Shown here piece by piece: positions 265-60,100 of a stretch of DNA of 64,000 nucleotides. The translations under genes were made by a program, and so were the position numbers. The first letter of the stretch is position 1, and each line of letters opens with the position of its first letter. The DNA comes from Geosiphon pyriformis uo1. Lineage: Eukaryota > Fungi > Glomeromycota. The notes under the pieces were generated by a model. The model saw only the letters and a program-made list of their open reading frames with translations. It was not told the origin of the DNA and searched no databases. The stretch spans positions 496,001 to 560,000 of the forward strand of contig JAAOMT010000303.1 of NCBI GenBank assembly GCA_016748015.1, read 5' to 3'.

Positions 265-921
265 ATGAACAATTATTTTTTGGATCAAAACATTTAAAAC
301 ATCTTCTATACTTTCCATAAATATTGGATCAAAAACTATCCAAATGCTACTTTGACTATTGGAAAACAAACCATCATAACTGATAACAGTAAAACACATA
401 CTGTTATTAGACCAAAGAAAACTACTACCAAAAGAGAAAAAATTGGTAGCAAAATAGATAAATATCTGTTGGAAAGTATAATAGCAGTTATACTCCCACC
501 TTCCAGCATAATTGGAAAAACACTCCAAGAAATCTTATCCATAGACAAAAACCTGTCATATAAAAGGCAATTATAATTCTATAGTCGTTTTGGAGAAATC
601 ATAGAGAATATGAAACTTATAAAAAAACCAACTTCAGAGATACAGACAGAAATTTTGGGCATTATACAGTTAAATGTTTCAAGAGTTTTAACTATTGCTA
701 GAAAAACCAAAACTCTAATACAAAGATTTGGTCTCTTGGATACAAAACTCATTTCACTTCAAGTATTATATACTCTATCCACAAAAGACTTCAACAAACT
801 AGTTAGTTTTGAGTTAAATAAAACTCTTCAAATAAATTACACCATAAATAGCTTGATTTCACTGGAGCTCAATCTCTTTGGAAAGGATAATATTACGGTT
901 GAAACTTATACTTCTTATTAA
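265..921 (+). pseudogene. A1 ORF3 (unknown function), with internal stops
   Basis: ATG AAC AAT TAT at 265; 657 nt like the other copies; ORF-track pieces 352-576 and 610-921. Confidence 0.88.
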
Positions 922-9754: not shown

Positions 9755-9767
9755 TTATTCCCTCTTT

Positions 9768-10397
9768 TTAATATTGAGCTCCATCAAAATCCAATTCTGC
9801 TAATTCCTCTTCTTGAAGTATTTCCTGAATTTTATTTTCGAGAATTACTTGTGTTATTTAAGTCTGTAATTCTTCAAATTGAGTGTTGGTGATCTTTTCT
9901 AATTGATTACTGGTAACCGTGTCTATTGCTTTGTTGAGTAAGATTTCTGGTCGATTCTGAAATACTGTGTATATTTGGTATATGGTTCAGGCCTGTGTAA
10001 ATAAGTTGTTCTTTTCCACAAAATGTTCTAATTGTTATAGTATTCTGGTGTCGAATAATTGCTTTGTTTTATCCATATATAAATTCTGGATATTCACGTG
10101 TTGTTCCAAGTAAAAATAACAATAGTTTCTTGGAAATTATTGTATCCATCAATTCCAAGTTTCTTTAGTCAACTCTTGGTATAGTAACTCTTTTGTCGAT
10201 TCTTTTATTGCTAATTTTACTTTCACTATAATTTTGTCAATGGTATTTTCTGTTTTTTTCTGTGTTCTATGTGTCAATGTCTTTCTAATGTCTTGATATT
10301 GGATGGTTTGTTAATTAATTGTAATTTCCATCTCTTTGTATTGAATCAATTGAAAGAGTTGTTGTGCTAGTAAGTAGATGTTGTCTGTAATTTCCAT
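9768..10397 (-). pseudogene. B ORF3 (209 codons, homologous to A ORF3)
   Basis: MEITDNIYLLAQQ...ELDFDGAQY*; no frameshift, only TAA/TGA stops explicable as CAA/CGA decay. Confidence 0.75.
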
Positions 10398-10439
10398 TTT
10401 TCTGATATTTCTTGTCATGTCTACCATGTCTTTATATAT

Positions 10440-11833
10440 TCTTTTGATGGATTAATTAACATGTTGTTGTCAATGATAATGATTGGTTCCAGATCTTATG
10501 AAATTTTCTCTGGTTGGACTAGTATCTTCTGTACTTCTAATTGTGGAATATTACTGATGGATAGTGATGTAATATTGTGGTATGATTTCAGTCAATCTTC
10601 ATGTGCTGTTTTGGTTAAGATTTTGTTATCCAGTTTTAATTTGTAAGCTCTATTTTCTAGAATTTTTTCTATGTAAAATGGTCCATCTCATTTGGAATCA
10701 AATTTTTCATTTCATTGTTTTTCCACTTTAGTATGATGTAAGAGTACTTTGTCTCCAATCTTGAATTTAACTGGTTTGTCTGGTAGTTGATTATCATGTC
10801 TTTTTTTCTGTTTCTCTTGTGACTTTTGTATGTTATCAGCTGCTCTTCTTCATTTGTTTTCCAATGTTTCCATTAAGTCATATGTTTTTCTTAACAATGT
10901 CTCTTGAAAATTCTCTTCTGTTATTGGTTCAGTTAGATATGTGTTAACCTCTATCTCAACTGGTAATGTTGCTGTTCTATCATATATCAATTCAAATAGT
11001 GTTGCTTGTGTGGTGTCTTGCTTCATTGTTCAATAAGCAAATAATACTAATGGTATGAACAAATCCCATTTATTCTGGTTTTCTTGGCTGAGTTTCACTA
11101 TTGCTTCACACAAAGTTTTATTAAATCTTTCAACTAATCCATTGGTTTGTGGATGGTATGATGATGATAGTGGTCTCTTAATTCCAAATCTTTGGCTTAG
11201 TTCTGCTAATGTTCTATTCACAAAATAGGTTCCTTGGTCTAATAATAGTTTTTTTGGACATCCATGTCAACAAATTAGATCTTAATGGATGAATTTGGCA
11301 ATGGATTTTGCATCTGCTTTTTAAATTGCTTTGGCTTCTGGCCATTTAGTAAGATAGTCTATGACTACTGCAATATATCTGTTGTTTTTGCTGGTAATTG
11401 TCAATGGTCCAATTAAGTCAATTCCAATGTGGTCGAATGGTTGTCCCACTTTGATTGGTCTTAATGGTTCATTGGATCTTGTTCCTCCTCTTTTTTAACA
11501 CACATCACAATTTTGAATGTATTGGATGATATCTGGATATATTGATGGCCAATAATATCTTTTTCTGGTTCTTTTCATGGTAGCTTCTTTGTGAAAATGT
11601 CCTGTTGTTGGATCAGAGTGCATGTTGAATAACACTGGTTCTTTTTCTGGCTCTGTAATTACTCTGGTTGGTTTATCTGGATCTTTTCTATTCTTCCAAT
11701 AAAGTATATTTTGGTAAGTAATAAAGTATTTTGATTGTTGTTTGATACTATTGCATTCTGATTGAGATAATTTCTTCTTGAACTGTTGAGTCTTTATATA
11801 ATGTTTGAGTTGTTAATATTTTTCTGGATTCAT
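10440..11833 (-). pseudogene. B integrase, separate ORF (3' limit approximate)
   Basis: ATG AAT CCA GAA after the RNase H stop; H..H..CxxC, GIDLIGP, YHPQTNGLVERFN, GPF motifs. Confidence 0.88.
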
Positions 11834-16035: not shown

Positions 16036-16692
16036 TTAATAAAAATTATGGGTTTCAATCATAACATCATTTTCTTCAAAGAGATTGAGCTCCAGTGAAA
16101 TCAAGCTATTTATAGGATATTCTAATTGAAAGGTTTTGTCTAACTTAAAACTAACTAGTTTGTTGAAGTTTTTTGTGGATAGAGTATATAGTACTTGAAG
16201 CAAAATAAGCTTTGTATCCAAGAGACCAAATCTTTGTATAAAAGTTTTGGCTCTTTTTGCAATGGTCAAAACTCTTGAGACATCTAAACATATAATGCCC
16301 AAAATTTCTACTTGTATCTCTGAAGTTGTTTTCTTCATGAGCTTCATTTCTTCTATGATTTTACCAAAACGACCATAGAGTTCTAGTTGTCTTCCATATA
16401 ACAAGTTTTTGTCTATAGGCAAGATTTCCTTAATCGTTTTTCCAATTGTCATGAAAGATATAAGTATTGCTGCTGTTATGCTTTTCAGCAAATACTTATC
16501 TATTTTGCTACCAATTTTTTCTCTTCTGGTAGTGGTTTTCTTTGGTCTAATAACAGTATGTGTTCCACTGTTATCAGTTATGGTGGTTTGTTTTTCAATG
16601 ATTAGAGTAGCATTTGGATAATTTTTGATCCAGTACTCATGGAGAGTATAGAAAGTGTTTTGAATGTTTTGATCTAGGAAATAATTGTTCAT
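16036..16692 (-). CDS. A4 ORF3, open 218 aa, unknown function
   Basis: Uninterrupted from ATG 16692, with the stop inside the 3' LTR. Confidence 0.8.
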   Translation of the reverse strand: MNNYFLDQNIQNTFYTLHEYWIKNYPNATLIIEKQTTITDNSGTHTVIRPKKTTTRREKIGSKIDKYLLKSITAAILISFMTIGKTIKEILPIDKNLLYGRQLELYGRFGKIIEEMKLMKKTTSEIQVEILGIICLDVSRVLTIAKRAKTFIQRFGLLDTKLILLQVLYTLSTKNFNKLVSFKLDKTFQLEYPINSLISLELNLFEENDVMIETHNFY

Positions 16693-16733
16693 GTCAATTG
16701 AAGATATCTCTGTTTTGGGACTGGTACATTTAT

Positions 16734-18047: not shown

Positions 18048-18114
18048 TATCGTGTTTGTCAAAAAAGAGAAATTACTAATAATTAAGTTGATTTGGTTTG
18101 AGAGGGTTGTTCTG

Positions 18115-23040: not shown

Positions 23041-23126
23041 TATCTAAAAATAGAGTGGCTAATTATATGACATCAGTGGTTAATACATGTGATAATTAAT
23101 AAAAATTATGGGTTTCAACCATAACA

Positions 23127-25794
23127 GTAGCTTTGAAGTGACCACACATTGCTGGTACTTGTCTGTGTCGACTATTCTGGCTGAGTACTAGTTTTTGAGT
23201 TGTCCAATCAAGCATGGCGTTGGTTTTGGATAGCCAGTTATTACCAACTAATGCTTAGTATTGGGTGGCTTCCATTATCAGAACTTTGATGAGTACTATA
23301 ATGCCATTAACTTCAATTGAAAAGTCATTGATTTTGCCAATTGGGGTTTTGGTGGCTCCATCCGCGATGATAATCCTGGCATTGGCAGCACGATCAGTTT
23401 CTCTTCAAGAGCTGCTCCACTGAATAATGACATATCTGATGGTTCTTCAAGTTCAAATGAAAAGATGACATTCAAAGATTCATTTTTGGTGATTGTAGCA
23501 GATGGGATATTATTGGTAGATGGTTGTTGTTGTTGTTTAATTCCCTGATTGCTGGATGTGGCATTTTCTGAAGTCACTAGAAGGCTTAAATAGTGTTGGG
23601 AATTCGGGTTTTGGGTGGGACCAGTGCCCGAATTTCACTGACGAGATCCTGATTGTTGGTGAGAAGAGCTGGGGATCAGTTGATATACAACTATTGCCGA
23701 TCTTCAGTTTTGGGTAATCCTTGATCTTGGGTTCTCTGATGTCATTTGAGCTGGGTTTGTTGGTGGTGTTTGAATGGTGGGTATTTAATAGATTGCTAGT
23801 GGCTATGGTTGATATATTACTTGTGGCTGTGCCTGATAAATTGCTTGTAGCAGTGGTTGATAAACTGGAGTTTGATAGACTGGCAGTTGATAAATTGGTT
23901 GGTGCATCATAGACAGGTAAGTGGGTTGGTATTAGTCTTGATTCGGGTGATGGTTTGGAGTCTGGAACTAGTAATCGAGGTTTCTATATTGATTTTCCAA
24001 TCGTGAATTGCTATAAGTATGGCAGTTGGCTCTGATGTGTCCTTGTTTACCACAGTTGTAACAGACATGCATCTCTGGCTGCCATGACTGATTGAATGAC
24101 GACAATGGATGTGACTGATTTTGGAAACGATTCATGTTTCCCTGATTGTTACACCATTGAGAAGGTTGATAAATTGTGTGATTGTTAGCTAAGTATCTCT
24201 CTAATTTCTGATTAATTGAACCACTGAATTGTTTCAATTTGGAATCCAATTCAGATGATCCATTTATTGCTAGATTCACAGCTTGAGTGTAATTAGCTTC
24301 TAGTTCAGCTGCTTCAAAATCTCTGGCATATGTGATTGCAGTTAAAAGATTCACTGGGTGCATTGGATGTATTCATTGTAGGATGCTACTGCACAATCCT
24401 CTAATAAATTGATTTAAAATCTGTGGTACTATAAAATAGTCAGCTTGGATGGCTTGTATTTGGTGTAGATTTCTATGGAAGCATCCCAAGTAGGTAATAA
24501 CTGCTTCAGTGTCTCCTTGTCTGATAGTTGTAAAGGTGTTGGCTAATTTGTTGATATTATTATTGTTGCTAAAGTACCACAAGAATTCAGTTTTAAATCC
24601 ATTAAAATTTTGGAGTTTGACAGTGAGACTTTGATACCATGCATCAGCAATATCCTGAAGAAAGTAAAAGATCACTTGCATCACTCTAGCATCATCTCAA
24701 TTATTGGCTATAATGGCTTTGGCTATATCATTTAACCAGACTTGGGCATTGTCTTCTTCACTGTTGAATTTGTCAAGTTTTGTGATGGGTGCATAAGCCA
24801 TTTGTTGTTGCTATGGTGGTAAAAGTTGTTGTTGTTGAGATGGTACTGGTGGCAGTTGTTGATTTTGTTGGTTCTGTGGTTGGATGGGCTGGCCAATTGG
24901 TTTAATGGGTGGTTGATTAATGATGATAACTGGAGATAAGTATTGATTAATTACTTCGGGATTTAGATTGTTCTGATTTGGTGGTGTTTGAATATTCAGA
25001 ATGTCATTTTTCTGATTGTTTAAATTTGGCTGGGTTTGAAAGTTCAGAGTTTCACTTTCTGGGTTTTCTAGAATTAGATTTTGGTAAGTAAATTCATGAT
25101 CCTCAGATTCTTCTTCCTCTTCTACTTCTTGTTCTCCTTCTGATTCAGTAATTTCCCACAGACTTATGGTTCTGAAATTTGGTTGAGATGGTGGTGATCA
25201 AAATCCTAATGGCGTCGGCGATCGAGATTTAAATCCTTTAAAATACTCACTGTATGGTCCTAGTAAATCCTCTTTCTTTTGTTTAGTTTGAAATAGAAAA
25301 TGTCCAAATGTTGATGTCACATTTGATGCAAACACATCTATTAATGATATATTAATGGCACTTCCAGGAGTATAGTGGTAGGATGGGTTGTTTGGTGACT
25401 CAACTCTAGTTTTTTTCTAAGTAGGTGGTTGTATCCTTTGAGGTATTACTGCTGGTGTTTGTAGTTTTCCTTTGCCTTTACTTGTGTACATAATTGGATA
25501 TCTTTGCTGTGTATAGTGTTCAATTTCTTTGTTGATCTCAGTAATGATGAATGCGAAATTATGATTTGTGAGTAGGCTGGTGTTTGGAATTAATTCATTG
25601 TAAAAAGTTTCTCTCGTTGATTCAATATTTATGAATGTTCCCAACAGATAGACAATCTTTTCATTGACATAGAAATTGAAAGCTAATTCTACTGATATGT
25701 GATTATGGATTATTCCCAAATATTGACAGTAATATTGAAATAAGAATTTCACAAATCCTAGATGGTTTGCTCTGACATTTTCTGATTTTGCCAC
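23127..25794 (-). pseudogene. gag: B gag and protease (catalytic segment of protease missing)
   Basis: Capsid-like ...AQVWLNDIAKAI, knuckle CYNCGKQGHIRANC, protease second half (IADG...ALVGNNWL) but no DS/TG near 23393. Confidence 0.85.
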
Positions 25795-25837
25795 TTTTGA
25801 ATGGAGTTGTTAGTACTGGTTTTCTGTAAGATTATAT

Positions 25838-25853
25838 CTCACAGGGAGCACCA
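25838..25853 (-). promoter_or_regulatory. B primer-binding site TGGTGCTCCCTGTGAG
   Basis: 2 nt from the 5' LTR; identical to the family A PBS. Confidence 0.9.
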
Positions 25854-25855
25854 AA

Positions 25856-26702
25856 TGTTATGAGTGATTTCTTGGGGTCTCAAATCAAATAACAAACCTG
25901 TAACTTGGTGCTAAAAGTTATTTGCATTGATGTTAATAATCTGAAGGTATTGTATCTGAAGGTTTTAGTTTGAATTCTTTGTATAATGTATAGAGATTCA
26001 ATAGTTGTTTTATCCGTAGCTTCCCAAAACTGCAATTCTGTCAATTCTTCTCTTGGCGTGATGGCTGGCAATCCTCTGGTAAGTATTTTATATCTTCTGT
26101 ACATGTCCTACTCTCTTGTAGGGGTCTTTTACTAGGCAATCTTTGACGTCAGTAATCTAGCACTTTATTCAATCAATTAGTACACAACAATAAAATAAAA
26201 AATAAAAATAAAGAAAAGAAATAAAAGAAAATAATGAATAAGCCAAGGCAGTTTTGCAAGTTAGTATCCTGTCAATAGCCATGATCAAGAGCTATTGTTC
26301 TAGTGTGTTTAAGTATCAATTACTATCAACATGAAGTTTTAATAGTGGAATTAGGTTTAAGATACCAAATAGTTATTTATTGTGTTTGGAAAGTTGTCTA
26401 GATGAAATCTAAACTGGGAGGTCTGTTTCTTTCAGCTTTTAATACTACTGCTATATATACATAATTAAGATTCCTCAATTCCTCCATTCTTTACAACAGG
26501 AACCCTGGAATTCCTGGAATCCTGCAATTCTTTTGAAGGGAATCCTGGAATTCTGGAATCCTGTGATTTCTCATGAGAATCCTGTAATTCCTGGAATCCT
26601 GCAATTCCTGAGAGGAATCCTGGAATTCCACATTTACTATGTCTACTTCTGATTGGCTAATAACTATGCTAATATATATTTCCTATATTTCTATGAATAA
26701 CA
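25856..26702 (-). repeat. B 5' LTR (GGAATCCT array ~26499-26630, CCAAT and TATA-like boxes)
   Basis: Direct repeat of 8908-9754; adjacent PBS. Confidence 0.95.
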
Positions 26703-29162: not shown

Positions 29163-29226
29163 CAGTACAACCTCCCATACCAAACCAACCTAATTATTAG
29201 TAATTCTCTTACAACCAAACACGATA

Positions 29227-30537
29227 ATGGACTTGGACAACTACTTTGCCTTAATAGAATTTTTGGGTAAAAGACAATACTCACTGGAATACACTCAACA
29301 GCAAAGAGAACATTTGCACAAACTATCAAATTTTTATTTGATTCACCAGAACCAGCTATGTAAAAGAAATAAAAAAGATCCTGACTGCCCTCAAAGAGTC
29401 ATCAAATTTGAAGAGAGAGAAATTGTAATATACAACATGTATATTGACCCATTAACTGGACACTTTGGAAAAACAAAAACAATTCAGAAAACTCTAGCTC
29501 ACTATTATTAGCCTATCTTGAGAAAAAACATTGCTGAATACATCAAAACCTGTGATATCTGCCAAAGAAAAGGAAAACCCAATTACAAAGAAAATATCCA
29601 TCCAATCTCTGTTGGTCAACCCTTTGACAGAATTGGTATAGATGTTGTTAGATCTTTAACAATAACTCTTGATGGCAACAAATACATTATCACAGCTACC
29701 AACTATCTTACAAAGTGGGTAGAAGCAAGAGCTATTCCAGACCAAACAGCAGTCTCAATAGCCAATTTCATTTATGAAGATATCATTTGTTGCCATGGCT
29801 GCCCCAAAGAACATTTATCTGACAGAGGAAGAGCTTTTCTCAGTACACTTATTGAAGAACTTTGCAGAAAAATGGGAATACATCACAAATTTTCCTCTTT
29901 TTATCACCCCCAAACAAATGGCCTAGTAGAACGTTTTAATAGAACATTATGTGAAACCTTAGCCAAAACCAGTGAAGAAACAAACTTATGGGACAAAGTA
30001 CTGCCTTCAGCCTTGTTTGCCTATAGAACTGTGAATCATGACATAACAAGTTATAAACCCTTTTATCTATTCTATGGACAAATGGCAACCCTACCAATAG
30101 AAACTGACATTGAGACAATACCCTTTGAACAAATAACAATAGGAAATTACAAAGACATTTTGCAAAGAAGACTTGTTACCATTCTTGACTCATTAGTAGA
30201 AGCACAGATAATTGCCTTTGAAAAGATAAAACAATTTCAAGAGAAGCTTAAGAAAAAGAAAACATATAAAACACTTTTCTTAAGTGTTGGTGACTTAGTT
30301 TTAGAATACCATTCAGACAGAGACAATGTCTATGGTAATAAATTCTCTAGCCAGTGGAAAGGACCCTTTATAGTCAACAAAGTTTTGAACAATGGTTCTT
30401 ATATCTTACAAGATCAATATAGAACAATCTTTAATGATTGCCCTGTTCATGGCACATGACTCAAGAAATATCACAAATGGCCTGATTGGTTACCTGTTGT
30501 GGTAATACTGACCCAAATGATCAAAAATCAGATATAA
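29227..30537 (+). pseudogene. A3 integrase, separate ORF (436 codons, internal stops)
   Basis: Own ATG 64 nt after the pol stop; HHCC, DDE core, GPF; no chromodomain. Confidence 0.9.
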
Positions 30538-30578
30538 ATAAATGCACCATTCCCAAAACAGAGGTATCTTCAATTGAC

Positions 30579-31235
30579 ATGAACAATTATTTCCTAGATC
30601 AAAACATTCAAAACACTTTCTATACTCTCCATGAGTACTGGATCAAAAATTATCCAAATGCTACTCTGACCATTGAAAAACAAACCACCATAACTGATAA
30701 CAATAGAGCACATACTGTTATTAAACCAAAGAAAACCACTACCAGAAGAGAAAAAATTGGTAGCAAAATGGATAAGTATTTGCTGGAAAGCATAACAGCA
30801 GCAATACTTACACTTTCCATGACAATTGGAAAAATGATTAAGAAAATCTTGCCCATAGACAAAAACTTGTCATATGGAAGACAACTAGAACTCTATGGTT
30901 GTCTTGGTGAAATCATAGAAGAAATGAAGCTCATGAAGAAAACAACTTCAGAGATACAAATAGAAATTTTGGGCATTATATGTTTAGATATCCCAAGAGT
31001 TTTGACTATTGCAAGAAGAGCCAAAACTCTTATACAAAGATTTGGTCTCTTGGATACAAAGCTTATTTCGCCTCAAGTACTATACACTCTATCCACAAAA
31101 GACTTCAACAAACTAGTTAGTTTTGAGTTAGACAAAACTCTTCAATTAGAATACCCTATAAATAGCTTGATTTTGCCAGAGCTCAATCTCTTTGGAAAGG
31201 ATGATGTTATGGTTGAAACCCATAATTTTTATTAG
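30579..31235 (+). CDS. A3 ORF3, open 218 aa, unknown function
   Basis: Uninterrupted; spans the PPT and ends 31 nt inside the 3' LTR. Confidence 0.8.
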   Translation: MNNYFLDQNIQNTFYTLHEYWIKNYPNATLTIEKQTTITDNNRAHTVIKPKKTTTRREKIGSKMDKYLLESITAAILTLSMTIGKMIKKILPIDKNLSYGRQLELYGCLGEIIEEMKLMKKTTSEIQIEILGIICLDIPRVLTIARRAKTLIQRFGLLDTKLISPQVLYTLSTKDFNKLVSFELDKTLQLEYPINSLILPELNLFGKDDVMVETHNFY

Positions 31236-31835
31236 TTATCACATGTATTAGCCACTAATGTCATATAATTAGCCACTTTATTTTTAGATAGTAATCGTTG
31301 ATCTGATCATTGACCACTTTCAATAGCTATATAAGTGATAAGTTTCTTAGCTGTAGAAAATCATCTCTCAGACAAGAATCAAATAAATAAAAATAACAAC
31401 TTTCATATCAATCACTCTCTTATCACTAATTTCCCTTTTCCTACCTTCAAGTATCCGAACATCTTAGAATAAAAAATTACTTGTTGGCCTTTTCCTGATG
31501 TATATAATTGTAGCATTTAAAGATTATTTGAATAAATGTGACTGAAAAGCACAAGTTGATACCTAATATTGAATTCTAAAAGCGCCAATGTGAGGCATAG
31601 AATTATATCAGTGGTGATCAATTGTTGACAGTATGGACTATCTCTCTACTTTCAAATTCCCCAGTTACCTTTGAAAAGAATAGCAACTGAGATATTTTAT
31701 GAGACTGATCTTGCACATTGAATTCATACTCATTCAATTCATTCTCTAAAGTTGAATTCCCCTTTGAATATTTCCATCACCCTACAATCCTGTTCTTCCT
31801 TGCTATCTGTTAGCTTGTTACTCCAACCTATAACA
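31205..31835 (+). repeat. A3 3' LTR
   Basis: After GGAAAGGATGA; ends TATAACA. Confidence 0.93.
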
Positions 31836-34800
31836 GTATAATAGTCTCAATTAAATATGTCTGTGGTCTTGAAGATTCAGGTACTTCATGTGTGTTACCA
31901 TTGCTTCTGAATGAGATGCCTCTTTCCTCCATTATCTGCATAATATTAGCTATTAAATTAACTCCTGGCCTAGATCATTCATTAGTGGAATATTCAAGTA
32001 TACTATGAGCTGACCATCTCTGTGCCTGCAAGTTGGCTAGTCTAATTTTTGTAGCCATTCCAGCAATATCAACACTGTTCAATCTAACTAACAAATCTGT
32101 AATCTTGCTTTTCACTTGTATATCATCAATTTTGAACAAGTTATACAAGGATGAGTGATGCATGGTACTGGCTGAGAAATCTACTAAAAGTTTTGCTTTT
32201 TTCTTCATAGTGGCTGAAATCTTTGAAGTCCATTTTCTAGCCCAGCTATTAGGAATATGAGTCAACTGAGATCTGAATTCAATAGCTGGACTGAGTACAC
32301 TGTTAAAAATGTAAATGGCCTGTTTCTCAGTTATGTGTTTTTTCTTGATGACTGCACACACTGCTTTAATGTTAGATCCTATCATTTTTAGAACAGTTTC
32401 ATTTTTCCCATCTGCTCTGATCCATACCTCCAAATATTGGGTACATGTAGATGGATCCAACAATTTCAAGATTTGTTTGTCTGGACCAAATTTTAGTGGC
32501 TCAACCATTGAAGATCTCCCTTTGGAGGGTCTGACCACCATTGTCTCAGTCTTATCTAAGTTGATCTCAATATCCATCATTCTAAAAAAGGAGCTGGTTG
32601 TGTCTAAAATACTTTGTATTTCTTGTCTTGAGTTAGCTATCCACACTGTGTTATCGACAAAGACAAGATGATTCACTGACACCAACAAAGATTGTGTATC
32701 CAATTGATTATTTCATTTTTTCTATGCTGCTGTCAGTTTGTATCTCTGACTATAATTGGCTTGTTTTACTTCACACAGTAAGAGGTCATAAAAAATTCTT
32801 TACATAATTAGTGAGCTTGTTTCCTTCTGATTCAGTCCATTTTGTACTTGATATTTGTCACTTAATCCAAATTCAGTTATGATCCTGTTGCTTCTATTGT
32901 TGTGCATCAAACCAAACAGCTCAGTAAACCTATTGTTCATCTTAATTCTCTTTAGTGCAGCTTTTATGGATTTCCATCTCACTGAATCATATGCCTTTTT
33001 CATGTTCTGAAATGTAAACCAAGCCTCATTACCAAATTCTCTTGCATGTTCGACTACAGTATTAATCACATGAATAGGCACTGCTATAGAGGTATTCTTT
33101 AATACTGAGGTATTGTAACCTTTTAGGACATTGTGAAGTTCACATGCTTTTGATATCCTAGCAGTTAGAATCTTTGTTAAGATTTTTCTGGTGCTTTTAA
33201 TGAGTGTGATTGGCCTGGTGATGTCAATATTGCCACCCTATTCTTTTGGCTTTGGAATCAGTATAACTTGTGCTACTCTCCACTCTTCAGGCATGTTTGC
33301 AGCTTTAATACAAGCATCGAGCAACATTTTCAGTTTAGACTTGGTATTAGGCCCAGCCTTCCTCCAGAGTTCAGCTTGAATGCCTAATGAGCCAGGAGCT
33401 TTGTTATGGGATGTGTGGCTCAATATGTGTTCAAATTTCTCATTTGTTAATTCATCTATTACACCATCAAAGGCATGATCTGGAATGCTTTCAATTGGCT
33501 CAAATCTGTGTTCCCAACTTTTCTATAGGTTAGGCTTAATGCTTCTTGTTCTGGTCCACTCTTGGGCTTTTTTGTTTACTAGCTTTTTAATTTCATCAGA
33601 ATCATCATGAAATTCGCCTTCTTCAATTATATGGTCTAGTACAATTCATTGTCTTTTTCTGTTCAGGATGCTTTTGATCATAGCTCTTTTGTTTAGATCA
33701 AAGTTTTGTTGTCTTCTGATAATATTGTCCACTATCTGTCTCTGTTGTTGTATCCTGATTTTAGCTTGCAGTGTTGATCTGTATTCTTTCTTAATATTAA
33801 GTAATTCCATAATTAGCTTATTTTTTGGGAGAGTCATCAGATATGCATTAACTGCCTCAGGTTTCAGCTGTTTCCATTTAGCCAACAACTGCATAACATT
33901 GTTATTATGTATATCTGCATTGTTTACTCTTAATTGTTTGATTATATTAGCAACAATCTTAACAAGCTTGTAATCTATGCATTTTTTCTTTGTGTGTGCA
34001 GATTGGGCTTCCACTTTCCTTTTTGGTAGGCACTTAGCAGCTTGTAACACAGTCTTCTTAATTGTAAACCACATCTGGTTTAGATCATTATTGTTGTTAT
34101 CTATTGATTTTCTTTGTGCTTTATTTGTTAGTTGATCAGATTCTCTAGTGTAGATTTCTCATTGGACTTCAAATGCCTTTTTAACATCAATCATAGTTGT
34201 GCTACACCTCTTTCTTCCAAATCTAGATTTTTTAGTGCCTGCCAAGATTCTATCAGATTGGATAATTGTTACTACTGCTTTGTGATCTGTGCTAAAAGAT
34301 TCATTAACATTAATCACCCTGATGTTTGTGACCAGTGAGACTGTAACTGCATCAATAAACACATAGTCCAATCTTCTTTGTACACTATTTGATGCCCATG
34401 TCTTTTCTGGATTGTTTGTTGCATATGCCCCATGTGTATTCACTAAATTCATATGTTGTAATGTTGCAGCAGTTGGACAAGCTTTGGCCTTATTTGTAGC
34501 ATATGTTTCCTTAAATGACTTGGATGACAGATCTTCATTCAAATCACCTGCTACTATGATAATCTCCTTGTTCTGTACAATGTCTCCCAAAAGTTTCCTG
34601 ATTTTTTTAGCTACTGCTCTCTCAGTAGGCAATTTGGAAGCAGACATATACAGTCCTATTATGTGCACACTAACTCTTTCTCTAAATTTTAACTCCAAAT
34701 GCAACAACCTCCCATGAAACCTCTTGATTGTTTCTACATGGTGTATCCAATATTTTTTGACCAGTATACCAACTCCAGTTCCCATTTGTTTTTTTGTACT

Positions 34801-35037
34801 TGATTCTCAAAAGGCATGATATTCATCAGAACCAAAAAATACACCCTTTTTTTTTATTGGGGTTATTTTAGTTTCTGTAACAATCACAAAGTCAAATTGT
34901 TCTTCAATAACCCAACGTAGCACCTCTTCAGCTTTACCAAGATTATTAAGCCCTCTAACATTAACAGTATCAATTTTCCAAGTGTTATTATTGGAGTAGT
35001 TCTGTTCTATGTTGGAATCAGGTATGCTATACATCAT
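31836..35037 (-). pseudogene. L2 ORF2 (APE endonuclease plus reverse transcriptase)
   Basis: NVRGLN, TET, AGDLNE, RRLDYVF, TDH (APE); KAPG, LIPK, KAYDSV, FVDN (RT). Confidence 0.92.
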
Positions 35038-37300
35038 CTGTTTCTATGGATTTAGATTCTTCAGCTGTAGAACTGCTTCAGCTACTTTGTTTTTTCACTT
35101 GCTTCAATAACTTCAGAATGGTTCCAAAGTTTTTTTGATTTTTTTGATTTCCAATTCTGGATTGTATGCCTCTTTTTTTCCTGTTGGGGTAGATTTCAAT
35201 GTAGTACTTTGGCTTGGTAACCTAATTTCCACCACTTCTTTTTCTTCTGAGGTGTCACTCGGCTGTTGAGTAACTATTACTTTTTTACCTTTCTCTATTG
35301 TCACTCCAAGTTTGGCAGCAACTGCATTTAGCAGTTTTGCCATTTTATAAACCTGCTGTCTTAGTTCATCAATTTCACTCTTCCATGGTTGGTTAACTCT
35401 TTTTTTTTATTGTTCTTCCCTATTGTTCACTTGTGGACCAGATTTCTAAGTATTGTTTGGATTGGTGTTGTTCTGGTTATGGGGCAGCCATATTAGCATA
35501 TGATCTTCCACCAAAGACCTTGATGTTTTCTTCTAGAACATTCCTCTTAACATACAGTTTTGCCAACCTAATATTATTGGTAACTTTCTTGGTATCTCTT
35601 TTTTTCTTCTTATGCAGGGTTGGACATTTTGAGACCAAATGTCCTACCTGGTAACAGAAGTGGCACTCTTTAGCATCAGTAGACACCCAGTGGACCAATG
35701 TGTCATCAATCACCAAGGGCTTTTTAGTGGCATTGTTGTGGTTAGTTTCACTGTTAAATCCTACATAAGCATAGCCCATTCTTGTGTAATTTTTACTAGT
35801 TCTTGGGATGAAGCAGAATCAGGCTTTGATTTGATCTAAAGTGGTGCTCAAATAGTGAGCAGTACAGTTCTGTGGTAGGCCCACCAATTTAGCTTCCCAG
35901 GTTTTTCTCTGTTTAATGATCTTTTGAGTTCCAATCATTGAGTAAATTCTGACTGCATCTTTTCTGACCATGGTTGATCATTGATCTACAGTTCTTGTTG
36001 CTTCTTCTTGGTTGTTATATTCAACTACTGCTGATTGCCATTTGCCAGCCACTCTGATTTGGATTTTATTGACCTCACCAAATTCTCTCATAGCAGCCCC
36101 CACCTCTCTGTCAGAGATGCCCAAGAGGATATCTCTTACTAGAACTTTTTTTGACCAGCCATTTGGATGTTGACACCATCAGTAGCCATCAAAAATGATT
36201 CAATTTCATTATTTGCCAGAATTTCTCTGGCTTGGTCTCTTCCAGCCACTTGGGAAAAATCAACTCTGATTTCTTGGTTTCTAGCCATTACAGCCCCCAA
36301 AAAGTACCTGACATCTCCCAAAAGATTGTAGATCCACCCCATTTTCTTTCCCATGATTTTTTCAGGTATATCTAATGCTTGCACAAAAATACATGCCTTT
36401 TGGTCCCATGGACCACTGTTCTCCATCCTTCCTCCTGGTTTGTTTCTATAAGCATGGGTTTTTTGCCAAGTAACCTACTACTGTATTGTCCTGGACTTGA
36501 ACTAGCCATTCTGCTTGATAGGCTTGATTCAGAGTTTTCTATGTCTTCTGTGACATCATCTGCATTAAGTTTATCTCTGTTTGCATCAAATGGATTGTCT
36601 ATTTGTTCTTTATTCTCTAATGCAGAATTTCCCCTGTTAATCCTGTCTAAAATATCAGGATTGCACTTTCTCAGAGCTGCTTCTATTTGTGCAGCTCTGT
36701 TTCTGTCTTCTTTAGGCATTTTGGATGGTCCATTCATTTTTTTCAGGGACTTTGAGACTCCCTTTTCACCAATCTAAGCTTCCATTTGAAATTTGTTGCT
36801 ATTTCCTCCTTTGTTGAATATTGGCTGCAAGACAAAGTTATTGGTTTGAACAGATGTGGTTTCGGGTAGGTTTTCTTCAGATATTTGGATAAATTTCTCA
36901 GTTAGCCCTTTTACACTTAATCTTCCAATGTGTCTGTATTTTTTGTTGGCCTTTTCCTCCAATCTGTTAGCTGTTATCAGAGAAAAGTCTGCTGCTCTCC
37001 TATGTGGAACTGTTTTTTTTGATGTGTTGGCTATTCTAAAGGGTGTATCGTCTCCACTACTTGTGTTCACACTTCCAAATGGCCTATTGGTAGTTTCAAA
37101 TCTAAATGGAGATGTAATAGGTCTGGCAGTTTCCATAGTTAATAAATTTCGTGAATTAGTGTTAATGTCTTCTTCTTCAGCAGTGGAAGTTATGTTCTCT
37201 TCCACTTGGTATTCACTATCAATAGTCTCTACACTTGTACTTATTTGCATGACTGTTGTCACTTTACTGTTGACATTGTTATCAGACACTTTTAAGTTTG
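35027..37300 (-). pseudogene. L2 ORF1 (RRM-like region, CCHC knuckle, coiled coil); start uncertain
   Basis: CHFCYQVGHLVSKC; stop TAG 35027-35029 overlaps ORF2 ATG 35037. Confidence 0.82.
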
Positions 37301-37321
37301 TTGTGATAATAATAATAATAT

Positions 37322-40300
37322 TTTTACAGGTTGGAGTAATAAGCAAATGGATAGCAAGGGAAAACAGGATTGTAGGGTGATGGAAATAATCAAAAGGGGA
37401 ATTCAACTTTAAAGAGCGAATTGAATGAGTATGGATTCAATGTGCGAGATCAGTCTCATAAAATATCTCAGTCGCTATTTTTTTCAAAGGTAACTGGAGA
37501 ATCTGAAGGTAGAAGGATAGTCCATACTGTCAACAATTGATCACCACTGGTATAATTCTATGCCTCATGTCGGTACTCTTAGAATTCAATATCAGGTATC
37601 AACTTGTGCTTTTCAGTCACGTTTATTCAAATAATCTTCAAATACTACAATTATATACGTCAGGAAAAGACCAACAAGTAATTTTTTATCTTTAAGATGT
37701 TCAGATATTTGAAGATAGGGAAAAGGAAATTAGTGATAAGAGAAAGATTAAGATGAAAGTTGTTATTTTATTTATTCTTGATTATTCAGATGCTTGTTAT
37801 TACATGCTTTTCTAGAGCTAAGAGATTCATCATTTATATAGCAATCAAAAGTGGTCAATGATCAGATCAATGATCAGGTTATTGATCAGATCAACAGTCA
37901 GGTTAACAGTCAGGTCATTGATCAGGTCAATGATCACTTTCTAAAAATAGTATGGCTAATCATATGACATCAGTAGCTAATACATGTGATAATTAATAAG
38001 AAGTATAAGTCTCAACCATAACATCATCCTCTCCAAAAAGATTGAGCTCCAGCAAAATCAAACTATTTAGGGGATACTCTATTTGAAGGGTTTTATCTAA
38101 CTCAAAACTAACTAGTTTGTTGAAGTCTTTTGTGGATAAGGTATATAAAACTTAAGGTGAAATGAGCTTTGTGTCCAAGAGACCAAATCTTTGTATAAGA
38201 GTTTTGGCTCTTCTTGCAATGGTCAAAACTCTTGGGACATCTAATCATACAATGTCCAAAATTTTCACTTGTATCTCAGAAGTTGTTTTCTTCATGAGCT
38301 TTATGTCTTCTATGATTTCACCAAGACAACCATAGAGTTTTAGTTGTCTTCCATATGACAAGTTTTTGTCTATGGGCAAGATTTCTTTAATTGTTTTTTC
38401 AATTGTAATGGAAGGTACAAGTATTGCTGCTGTTATACTTTCCAGCAAATACTTATCCATTTTGCTACCAATTCTTTCTCTTCTGGTAGTTATTTTCTTT
38501 GGTCTGATAACAGTATGTGTTCCACTGTTGTCAGTTATTGTAGTTTGTTTTCCAATGGTCAGAGTAGCATTTGGATAGTTTTTAATCCAATACTCATGAA
38601 GAGTATAGAAAGCATTTTGAATGTTTTGATCCAGAAAATAATTGTTCATATTGATTGAAGATACCTCTGTTTTAGAAGTGATGCATTTATTTATATCTGA
38701 TTTTTGCTGATCATTTGGGTTGGTATTACTACAACAAGTAACCAATCAGATTGTTTGTAATATTTCTTGAGTCACGTGTCATGAACAGGACGATCATTAA
38801 AGATTGTTCCAGATTGATTTTGAAGAATATAAGAACCATTGTTCAAAACTTTGTTGACTATAAAGGGTCCTTTCCACTGGCTAGAAAATTTATCACCATA
38901 AACATTGTCTTTGTCTGAATAGTATTCTAATACCAAGTCACCAATACTTAAAGAAAGTGTTTTATAGGTTTTCTTCTTTTTAAGCTTTTCTTGAAACTGT
39001 TTTATCTTTTCAAAAGCAACTATTCATGCTTCTACCAATAAGTCAAGAATGGTACCCAGTCTTCTTTGCAAAATGTCTTTGTAATTTGTTATTGTGATTT
39101 TTTCAAAGGGTATTGTCTCAATGTCAGTTTCTATTGGTAGTGTTGCCATGCACCCATAGAGCAGATAAAAAAGTTCATAACTTGTTATGTCATGATTCAC
39201 AGTTCTATAAGCAAACAAAGCTGAAGGCAGTACTTTGTCCCATAAGTTTGTTTCTTCACTTGTTTTGGCTAAGGTTTTACACAGTGTTTTATTGAAACGT
39301 TCTACTAGGCCATTTGTTTGGGGGTGATAAGGAGAAGAAAGTTTGTGACATATTCCCATTTTTCTACAAAGTTCTTCAACCAGTGTACTGAAAAAAGCTC
39401 TTCCTCTATCAGATAAAAGTTCTTTGGGGCAGCCATGGTGATAAATGATATCTTCATAAATGAAATTAGCAATGAAAACTGCTGTTTGATCTGGGGTGGC
39501 TCTTGTTTCTACCCACTTTGTAAGATAGTCAGTAGCTGTGATAATGTATCTGTTGCCAGAAGTTACTGTTAATGGTCCAACAACATCTATACCAATTCTG
39601 TCAAAGGGTTGGCCAACAGAGATTGGATGGATGTCTTTTTTGCGATTGGGTTTTCCTCTTCTTTGGCAGGTATCACAGGTTTTGATATACTCAGCAATGT
39701 CTTTTCCCAAGGTAGGCCAATAATAGCGAGCTAGAGTTTTATAAATTGTTTTTGTTTTTTCAAAGTGTCCAGCTAATGAATCAGTGTGCATGTTGTAGAT
39801 CACAATTTCTCTTTCTTCAAATCTTATGACTCTCTGGGGGTGGTCAGGATCTTTTCTATTTCTTTTATATAATTGGTTCTGGTAGATCAAATAAAAATTT
39901 GATTGTCTGCACAAATGTTCTCTTTGCTGTCAAGTGTATTCTGGTGGGTATTGTCTTTTACCCAAAAATTCCATTAAGAGAGAGTAGTTGTCTAAGTCAA
40001 TTATCGTGTTTAGGTTTGGGAGGTTGTATTGTCACTTGGTGGTAAGTCTGGAGAAAGTGTCTGTGTTTTGATGATTAGCTCTTTTATGGTGTTGAATATC
40101 ATAATCGAGCTTTTTCTTGTTGTGCAGCCAAACCAAAGCTTGGTGATCTGTTACCACCAAAAACTTCACACCAAGGAGATACTTATCCCAGTAGCTGGTA
40201 GTCCAAACTACTGCTAAGCATTCCTGCTCAATAACTAAATAGTTTTTTTCTACTGGTGTAAGGGTTCTACTGGCATAGACTATTGCATGTTCCCTGCCAT

Positions 40301-47203: not shown

Positions 47204-49938
47204 TGTTACGGGTTGGAGTAACAAGCTAATGGATAGCAAGGGAGAACAGTATTATATAGTGATGGAAATAAACAAAGAAGGAATTACAATAAGGGAGTGA
47301 ATTGAATAAGTAGGAATTCAATGTGCATGATCAGTCTCATAAAAATCACAGTCGCTAATCTTTTCTTAAATCTGAAGGTAGAGGAATAGTCCGTGATTGT
47401 CAACAAGATAACACTGCTGCTATTATTTTATGCCTCAACTCGGCAATTCTTAGAATCAATAACAGATATCGTTGTGCTTTTCAATCGTTTCTTTATTCAA
47501 TGAATTACAAGAGCAAGCCAATTGCTTCTCAGGCTAATTCTAACAAATACAAATCAAGAAGAGGAAAAGATAAGGTATGTGAATGCCAACAAATAGATAC
47601 TTGAAGGTAAGGAAAGGGGAATAAGTGATTATGAGAGGAAGTAATTGATATTGTTTATTTCATTACTTTGATCATGTCTTTCTACAGCTAAGGAAATCAT
47701 CACTTATATAGCTATCTAAAGTGGTCAATGACCAGGTTAATGATCAGATCAATGATCAGGTCAATGATCAGGTCAACAGTCAGGTCATTGATCAGGTCAA
47801 CGATCACTATCTAAAAATAGGGTGGCTAATTATATGACATCAGTGGCTAATACATGTGATAATTAATAAAAACTATGTGTTTCAATCATAACATCATTCT
47901 CTCCAAAGAGATTGAGCTCCGGTGAAATCAAACAATTTATGGGATAGTTTATGTAAAGGGTTTTGTCTAACTCAAAACTAACTAGTTTGTTGAAGTCTTT
48001 TGTGAATAGAGTATATAGTACTTAAGGTGAAATAAGCTTTGTATCCAAGAGACCAAATCTTTGTATAAGAGTTCTGGCTCTTCTTGCAATGGTCAAAACT
48101 CTTGGGACATCTAAACGTATAATGCCCAAAATTTCCACTTGTATCTCTGAAGTTGTTTTCTTCATGAGCTTCATGTCTTCTATGATTTCACCAAAATAAC
48201 CATAGAGTTCTAGTTGTCTTCCATATGACAAGTTTTTGTCTATGGGCAAGATTTCTTGTATTGTTTTTCTAATTGTGCTGGAAGGTGAAAGTATCACTGC
48301 TGTTATGCTTTCCAGCAGGTATTTATCCATTTTGCCACCAATTCTTTCTCTTCTGGTAGTTGTTTTCTTTGGTTTAATAACAGTGTGAGTTCCACTGTTG
48401 TCTGTTATAGTGGTTTGTTTTCCAATAGTCAGAGTAGCATTTGGATAGTTCTTGATCCAGTACTCATGGAGAATATAGAAAGTGTTTTCAATGTTTTGAT
48501 CCAGAAAATAATTGTTCATGTCGATTGAAGATACCTCTGTTTTGGGAATGGTGCATTTATTTATATCTAATTTTTGCTGATCATTTGGGTCAGTATTACC
48601 ACAACAGGTAACCAATCAGGTCATTTGTGATATTTCTTGAGTCGCGTGCCATGAACAGAACAATCACTGAATATTGTTCCATATTGATCTTGTAAGATAT
48701 AAGAACCATTGTTCAAAACTTTGTTAACTATAAAGGGTCCTTTCCACCGGCTAGAGAATTTATCACCATAAACATTGTCTCTGTCTGAACGGTATTCCAA
48801 AACTAAGTCACCAACACTTAAAGAAAGTGTTTTATAGGTCTTTTTCTTTTTGAGCTTCTCTTGGAACTGTTTTATCTTTTCAAAGGCAATTATTCGTGCT
48901 TCTACCAATGAGTCAAAAATGGTACCAAGTCTTCTTTGCAAAATGTCCTTGTAATCTCCTATTGTTATTTCTTCAAAAGGTATTGTTTCTATATCCATTT
49001 CTATTGGTAGAGTTGCCATTCATCCATAGAGCAGATAAAGGGGTTCATAACTTGTTATGTCATAATTCACAGTTCTGTAAGCAAACAAAGCTAAAGGCAA
49101 TACTTTGTCCCATAGGTTGGTTTCTTCACTGGTTTTGGCTAAGGTTTCACATAGTGTTCTATTAAAACGTTCTACTAGGCCATTTGTTTGGGGGTGATAA
49201 GGGGAAGAGAGTTTATGATGTATTCCCATTTTTCTGCAAAGTTCTTTAACCAGTGTATTGAGAAAAGCTCTTTCTCTATCAGATAAAAGTTCTTTGGGGC
49301 AGCTGTGGTGACAGATAATATCTTCATAAATGAAATTGGCAATTGAGACTGCTGTTTGATCTGGGGTGGCTCTTACTTCTACCCACTTTGTAAGATAGTC
49401 GGTAGCTGTGATAATGTATCTGTTGTCATCAGGAGTTACTATTAAAGGTCCAACAACATCTATACCAATTCTGTCAAATGTTGACTAACAGAGATTGGAT
49501 GGATATCTTCCTTGCAATTGGGTTTTCCTCTTCTTTGGCAGGTATCTCAGGTTTTGATGTATTCAGCAATGTCTTTTCCCAAGGTAGGCCAATAATAGCG
49601 AGCTAAAGTTTTCTGAATTGTTTTTGTTTTTTCAAAGTGTCCAGCTAATGGATCAGTGTGCATATTGTAGATCACAATTTCTCTTTCTTCAAATCTAATG
49701 ACTCTCTAGAGGCAGTCAGGATCTTTTTTATTTCTTTTATATAACTGGTTCTGGCAAATCAAATAGAAATTTGATTGTTTGCGCAAATGTTCTCTTTGCT
49801 GTTGAGTATAGTCTGGCAGGTATTGTCCTTTACCCAAAAATTCCATTAAGACAGAGTAGTTGTCTAAGTTCATTATCGTGTTTGTTTGTGGGGGAGTTAC
49901 AAATAATTAAGTTGGTTTGGTTTAAGAGGGTTTTACTA

Positions 49939-57149: not shown

Positions 57150-60100
57150 TGTTATGGGTTGGAGTAACAAGCTAATGGATAGCAAGGGAGAACAGGATTG
57201 TAGGGTGATAGAAATAATTAAAGGGGAATTCAACTTTAAAGAGTGAATTGAATAAGTATGAATTCAATGTGCGAGATCAGTCTCATAAAATATCTTAGTT
57301 GCTATTCTTTTCAAAAGATAACAAGGGAATCTGAAGGTAGAGGGATAGTCTATACTGTCAACAATTGATCACCACTAGTATTAATTCTATGTCTTCACGT
57401 CAGCACTTTTAAAATTCAATATCAGGTATCAACTTGTGCTTTTTAGTCACATTTATACAAATAATCTTCAATACTACAATTATTCAAACAGGAAAAGGCC
57501 AACAAGTAATTTTTTATCTTAAGATGTTCGGATACTTAAAGGTAGGGAAAGAGAAATTAGTAATAAAAGAGTGATTGAGATAAAAGTTGTTATTTTTATT
57601 TATTTGATTCTTGTCTGAGAGATGATTTTCTACAGCTAAGAGACTCATCGCTTATATAGCTAATGAAAGTGGTCAATGATCAGGTCAACGACTAGGTCAA
57701 TGATCAGGTCAATGATCAGGTCAACAATCAGATCATTGATTAGGTCAATGATCAGGTCAATGATCAGGTCAACAGTCAGGTCATTGATCAAATCAATGAT
57801 CACTATCTAAAAATAGAGTGGCTAATTATATGACATCAGTGGCTAATACATGTGATAACTAATAAAAATTATGGGTTTCAACCATAACATCATCCTCTCT
57901 AAAGAGATTGAGCTCTGGTAAAATCAAGCTATTTATAGGGTATTCTAATTGATGGGTTTTATCTAACTCAAAACTAACTAGTTTGTTGAAGTCTTTTGTG
58001 GATAGAGTGTATAGTACTTGAGGTGAAATAAGCTTTGTATCCAAGAGACCAAATCTTTTTATAAGAGTTTTGGCTCTTCTTGCAATGGTCAAAACTCTTG
58101 GGACATCTAAACGTATAATGCCCAAAATTTCCACTTGTATCTCTGAAGTTGTTTTCTTTATGAACTTCATTTCTTCTATGATTTCACCAAGATGACCATA
58201 GAGTTCTAGTTGCCTTCCATATAACAAGTTTTTGTCTATGGACAAGATTTCCTTAATCATTTTTCCAATTGTTATGGAAGGTGTAAGTATTGCTGCTATT
58301 ATGCTTTCCAGCAAATACTTATCCATTTTGCTACCAATTCTTTCTCTTCTGGTAGTGGTTTTCTTTGGTCTAATAACAGTATGTGTTCCACTGTTATCAG
58401 TTATGGTGGTTTGTTTTCCAATGATCAGAGTAGCATTTGGATAATTTTTAATTCAGTACTCATGGAGAGTGTAGAAAGCATTTTGAATGTTTTGATCTAG
58501 AAAATAATTGTTCATGTCAATTGAAGATACCTCTGTTTTGGGAATGGTGCATTTATTTATATCTGATTTTTGTTGATCATTTGGGTCAGTATTACCACAA
58601 CAGGTAACCAATCAGGTCATTTGTAATATTTCTTGAGTCGTGTGCCATAAACAAGGCAATTATTGAAGATTGTTCTATATTGATCTTGTAAGATATAAGA
58701 ACCATTGTTCAAAACTTTGTTGACTATAAAGGGTCTTTTCCACTGGCTAGAGAATTTATTACCATAGACATTGTCTTTGTCTAAATAATATTCTAAAACT
58801 AAGTTACCAACACTTAAAAAAAGTGTTTTATATGTTTTCTTTTTCTTAAGCTTCTCTTGGAATTGTTTTATTTTTTCAAAGGCAATTATTTGTGCTTCTA
58901 CTAATGAGTCAAGAATGGTACCAAGTCTTCTTTGCAAAATGTTTTTGTAATTCTCTATTGTTATTTCTTCAAAGGGTATTGTCTCAATATCAGTTTTTAT
59001 TGGTAGGGTTGCCATTCATCCATAGAATAGATAAAAGGGTTCATAACTTGTTATGTCATGATTCACAGTTCTATAGGCAAACAAGGCTGAAAGCAGTACT
59101 TTGTCCCATAAGTTTGTTCCTTCACTTGTTTTGGCTAGAGTTTCACATAGTGTTCTATTAAAACGTTCCACTAGGCCATTTGTTTGGGGGTGATAAAGAG
59201 AGGAAAGTTTGTGACATATTCCCATTTTTCTGCAAAGTTCTTCAACAAGTATATTGAGAAAAGCTCTTTCTCTGTCAGATAAAAGTTCTTTGGGACAGCC
59301 ATAATGACAAATGATATCTTTATAAATGAAATTGGCTATTGAGACTGCTGTTTGGTCTGGAGTGGTTCTTGTTTCTACCCACTTTGTAAGATAGTCAGTA
59401 GCTGTGATAATGTATTTGTTGCCATCAGGAGTTATTGTTAAAGGTCCAACAACATCTATACCAATTTTGTCAAAGGGTTGACCAACAGAGATTGGATGGA
59501 TATCTTCTTTGTGATTGGGTTTTCCTTTTCTTTGGCAGATATCACAGGTTTTGATGTATTCAGCAATGTCTTTTCCCAAGGTAGGCCAATAATAACGAGC
59601 TAGAGTTTTCTGAATTGTTTTTGTTTTTCCAAAGTGTCCAGCTAATGGATCAGTGTGCATATTGTAGATCACAATTTCTCTTTCTTCAAATCTAATGACT
59701 CTCTAGGGGCAGTCAGGATCTTTTCTATTTTTTTTATAAAGTTGGTTCTAGCGAATCAAATAGAAATTTGATTGTTTGCACAAATGTTCTCTTTGTTGTT
59801 GTATGTATTTCGGTGGGTATTGTCCTTTACCCAAAAATTCCATTAAGACAGAGTAGTTGTCCAAGTCCATTATTGTGTTTGTCAAAAAGGGGGAATTACT
59901 AATAATTAAGTTGGTTTGGTTTGAGAGGATTGTTCTGTCACTAGATAGTAAGTCTGGAGAGAGGATTGGCATTTTGATGATTAGCTCCTTTGCGATGTTG
60001 AATATCATAATCAAATTCATCTAAGTAGAGTATTCAGCGAGTTATCCATTTGTGTTCTAGCCTCTTTTTGTTGCACAGCCAAACCAAAGCTTGGTGATCT

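Follow-up and report, generated by a model that had tools for sequence, protein, structure and literature searches.

The stretch of Geosiphon pyriformis DNA analysed here (64 kb in length and referred to below as the window) is a cluster of nested LTR retrotransposons in decay, and the subject of this work is a gene, ORF3, that follows the integrase gene in the elements of family A. In the focal copy ORF3 (30579..31235, +) is open and encodes a protein of 218 amino acids (aa). It is the fourth gene of the element, because the integrase is a gene of its own located after the RT-RNase H stop. The focal integrase gene (29227..30537, +; start counted from the alignment) carries premature stops and begins with a separate ATG, located 64 nt beyond the RT-RNase H stop (29162). 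A TATA box-like element (TATAAAT; 30533..30539, +), which is a candidate internal promoter, overlaps the integrase stop 46 nt before the ORF3 ATG. An earlier note on this DNA had placed the ATG (30579) 41 nt past the integrase stop (30535-30537), and this spacing is correct (40 + 1). The same is true of its description of a frame that spans the polypurine tract (PPT; 31194..31204, +) and terminates 31 nt into the 3' LTR (TGTTA...TAACA; 31205..31835, +), the last 31 nt of ORF3 being at the same time the start of this LTR. The TATA box of the focal LTR is located at 31328-31334, and most of the U3 repeat array has been deleted in this copy. The other family A copies of ORF3 in the window are located at 265..921 (+; stops at codons 11 and 104), 16036..16692 (-; open), 37993..38649 (-; stops at codons 135 and 166), 47863..48519 (-; stop at codon 166) and 57859..58515 (-; stop at codon 21).

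Host elements and their stand-alone integrase

The elements of families A and B carry gag, protease (PR), reverse transcriptase (RT), RNase H and integrase (IN) in the Ty3/gypsy order (Pfam). Of the solved structures, Ty3 RT is the one closest to their RT (E 5e-77, compared with 1e-27 for foamy-virus RT), and they possess the LTRs ending in TG...CA, the PPT ahead of the 3' LTR and the target-site duplication by which Ty3/gypsy elements are recognised. A chromodomain is absent from the integrase in both A and B (Pfam; an SH3_Tf2-1 match in B is weak), so that they are not assigned to the chromoviruses.

In the usual Ty3/gypsy layout the integrase forms part of one polyprotein with RT-RNase H. 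The A and B elements depart from this layout, their integrase being a stand-alone gene marked by a stop after RNase H, by frame-changing indels and by an aligned start methionine. The integrase gene of the 58515 copy (58557..59870, -; 437 codons) encodes a protein 43% identical to the family B integrase (10421..11833, -; H2C2, rve and SH3 domains, no chromodomain), with Met1 aligned to Met1, and the spacer ahead of the integrase (29163-29226, +; 59871-59935, -; 11834-11895, -) tolerates indels of 1, 2 and 37 nt. An ATG of its own and an indel-tolerant spacer therefore imply a processed or subgenomic message for the integrase; no canonical TATA box was seen ahead of it in family A. Where gag and pol overlap, the reading frame moves to -1 around TTTAAAC (62620-62630, -), which we take to be the slippery site. 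A frameshift or fusion connecting ORF3 with the integrase is unsupported, as the predicted gene models join the two at many inconsistent junctions and look like prediction artefacts.

Among the four elements with both LTRs, the 4-bp target-site duplication is exact in two, contains one mismatch in another and is lacking in the 48519 element, which spans an assembly gap (291 nt; 51922-52212) and may join two elements, because its two LTR flanks form no duplication. The duplications (LTR flanks 23126/15365, 44967/37322, 26702/8908 and others) measure 4 bp, and all of the A flanks examined have a central TA, indicating a strong insertion preference. The protease region of a complete B element (8908-26702, -; LTR pair 91% identical) is interrupted by a complete A element (15365-23126). 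In family B a dUTPase domain separates the protease from the RT (13725-14118, -; PF00692, E 7e-15), none being shown in A, and such a domain is known from other fungal elements (PMC2864245). The primer-binding sequence after the 5' LTRs is identical in A and B (e.g. 22380-22398, -, and 25838-25855, -), with a 16-mer starting TGG after the 5' LTR. The window further holds pieces of at least two LINE-like (non-LTR) elements (about 1548-3100, 31840-37316, 5346-6490 and 54506-56850), which show endonuclease-like frames and are broken up by LTR elements.

LTR sequence is reported to make up 41.2% of the Geosiphon pyriformis genome (PMC11952901), and the family of elements bearing ORF3 appears to be a major one in this species. 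Mutation among the A copies is about three times as frequent at CpG as at other cytosines (0.31 vs 0.10), an excess that fits methylation of the element by the host.

Conservation, selection and relatives of ORF3

The six A copies were originally described as ORFs of exactly 657 nt (265, +; 16692, -; 30579, +; 38649, -; 48519, -; 58515, -). Their identical length from ATG to stop is borne out by a gap-free alignment, but only two of them (16692 and 30579) are open, the other four containing one or two premature stops. The contrast that had been drawn between an indel-free ORF3 and indel-rich LTRs holds as a count (0 in 657 nt, against 26 gap runs in 633 nt of LTR). However, it is inflated because the LTR holds a tandem array, and it is unremarkable in comparison with pol, where 10 gap runs in 3.36 kb lead to an expectation of about 2 in 657 nt (zero observed; P about 0.14). 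Codons 135 and 166 are sites of recurrent stops, codon 166 being affected in two window copies, and among the 120 listed relatives of the A protein 7 have a length of 165 aa and 5 of 134-135 aa; these stops represent either a hotspot or a truncated subfamily.

The pairwise dN/dS of ORF3 in the six A copies is 0.55 (0.41-0.75; kappa 10) and remains well away from 1 when CpG columns are masked, a check that the earlier note had proposed (0.52, 0.38-0.75); the intervals are derived from non-independent pairwise counts, and the values represent a blend of selection and of decay after insertion. The shifted frames give values of 1.08 and 1.39-1.80 and the antisense frames 0.89, 0.66 and 1.77, the frame with 0.66 being the one that shares third positions with ORF3. 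By region, dN/dS is 0.25 for codons 1-70, 0.83 for codons 71-140, 0.43 for codons 141-195 and 0.82 for the tail. An excess of synonymous changes is seen both for private changes (0.60, p=0.004) and for shared changes (0.55, p=0.011), and selection on ORF3 is thus similar to that on the integrase C-terminus (private/shared dN/dS 0.59/0.71, compared with 0.72/0.28 for the integrase core and 0.74/0.97 for its N-terminus). Premature stops per codon are rarer in ORF3 (6/1308) than in the integrase (22/2253).

The age of ORF3, as seen in its distant relatives, is stronger evidence for a gene than these dN/dS values. The listed relatives of the A protein (120 listed, from 130 matches among 286 candidates) and of the B protein (103 listed, from 213 candidates) are all named as hypothetical proteins of Geosiphon pyriformis. 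A profile search of 1.84 billion proteins yielded 28 matches, five of them divergent and unnamed, and a second profile search yielded 12 divergent unnamed proteins among 2530 candidates. Four full-length metagenomic proteins show 25-34% identity to A with 26 invariant positions, and the full-length relatives are collinear with A from the first methionine through the PPT-encoded tail, the best conserved part across relatives being residues 1-45 (39%). Among 58 candidate metagenome stretches one was confirmed (L001), in which an integrase C-terminus (50% identical to A), a stop, an ORF, a PPT and the start of an LTR follow one another in the order and frame of A; its ORF is 95% identical to the query P0244. 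Identity between the ORF3 genes of A and L001 peaks at second codon positions (0.41, 0.59 and 0.34 for the three positions), and within the A type ORF3 keeps about 29% identity where the integrase keeps 50%. The start of the L001 LTR (1067-1135) contains two short palindromes, and the coding part of L001, unlike the window copies, retains many CpG sites. No confirmed relative was found in viral contigs (integrase in 0/50; further set 0/64), in prokaryote genomes (0/20) or in plasmids, and five phage rows at E 0.3-1 were rejected as noise.

These sequence comparisons indicate that ORF3 is a real gene that is kept by selection, and in family A it travels with the stand-alone integrase. The suggestion that it encodes an ancient accessory protein of the lineage stands in so far as the gene is old, selected and not an env; for a protein common to A and B, which had also been suggested, there is no significant match.

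The family B elements have a frame in the same place after the integrase (9768..10397, -; 209 codons), and an intact 209-aa relative of it exists (P0122). This is the 630-nt ORF (10397-9768) of the earlier note, but it contains six internal stops, and it does not cross the PPT into the LTR in the manner of A, as it ends at the 5' edge of its PPT. The by-eye alignment of the A and B proteins is reproducible but not significant, and their profile alignment, on which the earlier note had staked the relationship, is non-significant in every comparison. The blastp match has E=10, hhalign gives a probability of 0.2-0.4% with both shallow and deeper A profiles, 11 of 12 profile-versus-shuffle tests are not significant (in the best case 20 of 1000 shuffles score as high) and global alignments have z values of -0.5 to 2.5 (10 pairs), results that are compatible with homology given that the B profile is shallow (Neff about 1.4).

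We regard common descent of the A and B genes as probable, by a modest degree. That they are instead unrelated genes occupying the same slot, which concerns the A/B claim only, is a reading of not quite even probability. It accords with the non-significance of every A/B test, with the failure of either family's searches to retrieve the other and with the end of the B gene ahead of the PPT. However, the two genes share the slot, a similar length (218 and 209 aa), a TATA box at a similar distance, an acidic tail and collinear by-eye motifs. The A and B elements are also 45% identical in RT-RNase H and 43% in integrase and have the stand-alone layout in common, while the shallowness of the B profile and the low identity of ORF3 already within the A type, when set against that of the integrase, argue further against unrelated origins.

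The predicted protein and the candidate internal promoter

An AlphaFold model of the A protein built with the distant relatives has an overall pLDDT of 59. Blocks within residues 81-180 reach 69-90, whereas most of the remainder, including most of residues 1-77, stays under 50; with near-identical copies alone the pLDDT is 37. Helices are predicted at residues 79-90, 99-118, 123-131, 138-155, 165-170 and 173-181. This helical domain carries a net charge of +3 to +11 in 6/6 proteins, and the last 25 residues are acidic in 9/9 proteins, B included (net charge -2 to -7). In the A type this tail is under the constraint of the overlap with the PPT and LTR, whereas the tail of B is free of the PPT constraint.

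The model has no Foldseek match at E <= 0.001 in the fold libraries, BFVD included, and the leads that follow are all sub-threshold. The best VIA match (Z 5.7) is to an unrelated chain, and Z values under 8-13 may be due to chance; Spo0J (Z 5.2, 98 aligned, 3.7 Å), KorB (Z 4.8, 101 aligned, 4.5 Å) and three Raf1 chains (Z 4.9-5.6), whose domain is presumably of the helix-turn-helix type, fall in this range. A further structure search placed Spo0J first and also returned P1 ParB (41 residues at 1.7 Å) and Noc, a phage partitioning protein was second in BFVD (E 0.39), and the ParB-type structural match in Foldseek has E 1.7. In hhalign against nine ParB domains the match (E 0.0024, probability 12%) scored above 200/200 column shuffles, but the reversed profile reached 16 compared with 22.5, ParB was selected as target only once the fold search had been made, and profile and structure place the match in different registers. 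Segment 113-136, predicted as the first helix-turn-helix, is also the least conserved part of the protein (12% identity). The likeness to a ParB-type helix-turn-helix is thus weak and sub-threshold, and we treat it as a lead and not as an assignment.

ORF3 has no passing match in Pfam, PHROGs or NCBIfam, and the best hit in a sequence search of the PDB has E 0.55. The resemblance of the C-terminal half to DUF3102/YhcG-N-like modules that had been proposed finds no Pfam counterpart (16 members scanned; the HMMER filters drop most matches above E 0.1). In Atlas the rows of the A protein are weak (recognition 2050, 128-136 shared features) and include RegA-like and DUF6192 rows, and the B protein has no usable match. 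The protein was also said not to be an Env, and judged by hydropathy it indeed shows no signal peptide or transmembrane signal: the peak 19-residue hydropathy is 0.27-1.28 in 6/7 proteins and 1.68 in the window copy, where it falls at an internal predicted helix. It has 0-2 cysteines, a polar N-terminus, no cysteine-rich ectodomain and no match to an Env family. A conserved nuclear-localisation signal was considered and rejected, as the distant relatives lack the basic stretch seen at residues 50-60.

A TATAWAW motif is present at -46 in 6/6 A copies, at -41 in B (10432..10438, -; 41 nt before the ATG of the B frame) and at -52 in L001. Its background frequency is 3 in 5141 nt of A interior, 2 in 4851 nt of B and 0 in 430 nt of L001; the scan was made after the motif had been sighted, and the chance rate is raised because box and TAA stop overlap in A and L001. 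An extra ATG is located between the TATA box and the ORF3 start in 5/6 A copies, in B and in L001. Transcription generally starts some 30 nt after a TATA box. A start at this distance would skip the upstream ATG, whereas ribosomes that re-initiate after the integrase stop would meet the upstream ATG first. On these sequence features it is likely that ORF3 has its own promoter at the end of the integrase gene, for which the TATA box is the candidate.

The family A LTRs contain a U3 tandem array whose 12-bp unit has a palindromic core (TGATCA), for example 11 units at 57671..57802 (-; trf), which provides candidate binding sites. This array is located directly upstream of the LTR TATA box and varies in copy number between copies, and the B LTR has a different repeat, likewise ahead of its TATA box. 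A U3-like motif near the internal TATA box was also looked for in A and rejected, the one loose match (58588) being too weak.

Possible roles of ORF3

Ty3/gypsy elements may carry an additional ORF in sense orientation in the interval from pol to the 3' LTR, which is known as an aORF-3S (PMC7264820; PMC5408684), and a figure legend marks an additional ORF of unassigned function in some fungal elements (PMC2864245). ORF3 is in sense orientation, lies between pol and the 3' LTR, is present in most copies and is selected, and it can be classed with the aORF-3S, which it resembles as a sense gene after pol that occurs in all copies of a family and is conserved like parts of pol. It differs from them in having no transmembrane segment and no esterase or exonuclease match, in crossing the PPT into the LTR, in following a stand-alone integrase and in representing a new protein family. 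In the openly accessible literature that was searched we found no description of the ORF3 family, of the four-gene layout or of a stand-alone integrase in elements of Glomeromycotina; what is new here is the TATA box 41-52 nt ahead of the ATG (A, B and L001), the stand-alone integrase and the basic helical domain with its weak ParB likeness.

The TATA box, together with the basic helical domain, speaks for a regulator that binds nucleic acid more than for an integrase partner or a packaging factor. The reading that we favour, tentatively and at something short of an even chance, is that ORF3 encodes a DNA-binding regulator that is expressed from an internal promoter and acts on the LTR, comparable to foamy-virus Tas or to VANC. 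A short subgenomic mRNA would start about 10-25 nt before the ORF3 ATG, past the upstream ATGs, and would end in the 3' LTR. Residues about 80-181 of its product are predicted to form a basic helical domain of the helix-turn-helix type, and the acidic, aromatic tail could serve as an activation surface. The protein may bind the palindromic U3 repeats and thereby either switch on the LTR promoter or shield it from methylation. Among the observations that count against a helix-turn-helix regulator are the poor conservation of segment 113-136, the dN/dS of 0.83 for codons 71-140 and the conserved residues 1-45, which it leaves unaccounted for.

Tas (Bel-1) of foamy viruses is made from an internal promoter and binds both promoters (PMC7390438). 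ORF3 is similar in being an accessory gene that is located close to the 3' end and served by a second promoter (a candidate in ORF3), in an element whose enzymes are made apart from Gag, and in having a DNA-binding domain (predicted in ORF3) followed by an acidic end. It differs in that its element is an env-less Ty3/gypsy element in which PR-RT follows gag via the -1 frame change and only the integrase stands alone, and in that it has no sequence match to Tas. VANC of the Arabidopsis VANDAL transposons acts on family-specific tandem repeats (PMC5735166), and it is likewise an accessory protein encoded by the element beside family-specific non-coding tandem repeats in a host that probably methylates the element. 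However, VANC belongs to a DNA transposon and ORF3 to a retrotransposon, there is no sequence match between them, and the binding of repeats by ORF3 is putative. The helix-turn-helix domain of ParB, Spo0J and KorB resembles residues 99-181 of ORF3 in the order and length of its helices, with recurrent weak structural matches; ORF3 differs in having neither the ParB N-terminal domain nor a Pfam match, and all of the matches are sub-threshold. A more far-reaching reading, which we consider doubtful, is that this lineage has independently arrived at a circuit of the complex-retrovirus kind. Besides the separate integrase gene, this circuit would comprise a helix-turn-helix protein, whose origin may lie in bacterial ParB-type proteins, expressed from an internal promoter; the protein would bind the family-specific U3 repeats and activate or unsilence the LTR.

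ORF3 could instead be a partner of the integrase or of the particle, acting as an insertion tether that replaces the chromodomain or as a packaging factor, which we judge to be rather unlikely. The integrases of A and B have no chromodomain and ORF3 is found at that spot, the elements are nested in each other at target sites with a central TA, and the N-terminal 45 residues, although well conserved (39%; codons 1-70, dN/dS 0.25), are poorly folded alone. On the other hand, the candidate promoter of its own suggests that the expression of ORF3 is uncoupled from that of the particle proteins, and the integrase-ORF3 fusion gene models, with their many junctions, have an artefactual appearance.

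An RNA-level regulator of the Rev or CERV type, exporting or stabilising a full-length RNA and needed as the integrase uses a separate message, is an explanation that we consider unlikely. CERV of the Caenorhabditis elegans element Cer1, the product of a spliced mRNA that acts on RNA export (PMC10309623), provides a precedent, as it is a regulatory protein other than Env that an LTR retrotransposon makes from a message of its own, which ORF3 would also be on this reading. The processed or subgenomic message implied for the integrase, which starts at a separate ATG past the RT-RNase H stop and follows an indel-tolerant spacer, is in keeping with this explanation, as are the basic nature of the helical domain and, as a weak lead, an Atlas row to a cluster of RegA-like translation repressors (0.91, only 128 shared features). 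However, no arginine-rich motif is kept in the alignment of relatives, the structural leads are DNA-binding domains, no splice site is demonstrated, CERV differs in its spliced mRNA and its role in RNA export, and no match to it was found in ORF3.

An Env-like protein or small fusogen for movement between cells or nuclei would suit the env position of ORF3, where sense ORFs are often env-like (PMC7264820), but the low hydropathy, the 0-2 cysteines and the polar N-terminus make it very improbable. That the frame is no more than a consequence of recent amplification and has stayed open by chance has in its favour the stops in 4/6 copies, the dN/dS of only about 0.5 and an absence of indels that is not significant in relation to pol, but it is refuted by the distant full-length relatives (25-34%) in the same position with their identity peak at second codon positions, is opposed also by the frame-specific selection and the lower number of stops per codon than in the integrase, and retains a negligible probability.

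Extra genes located after pol are thus known, few of them with a function, and the family to which ORF3 belongs is unnamed in every library tested. The stand-alone integrase, for its part, raises the question of its route into the particle. For the regulatory reading that we favour, ORF3 offers a ready test system consisting of one small protein and one short repeat. If ORF3 is a sequence-specific activator or an anti-silencing protein, it would show how, in a lineage of symbiotic fungi, a retrotransposon overcomes methylation by its host, and if the circuit outlined above is real, it could help to explain how LTR elements have come to fill 41% of the genome.
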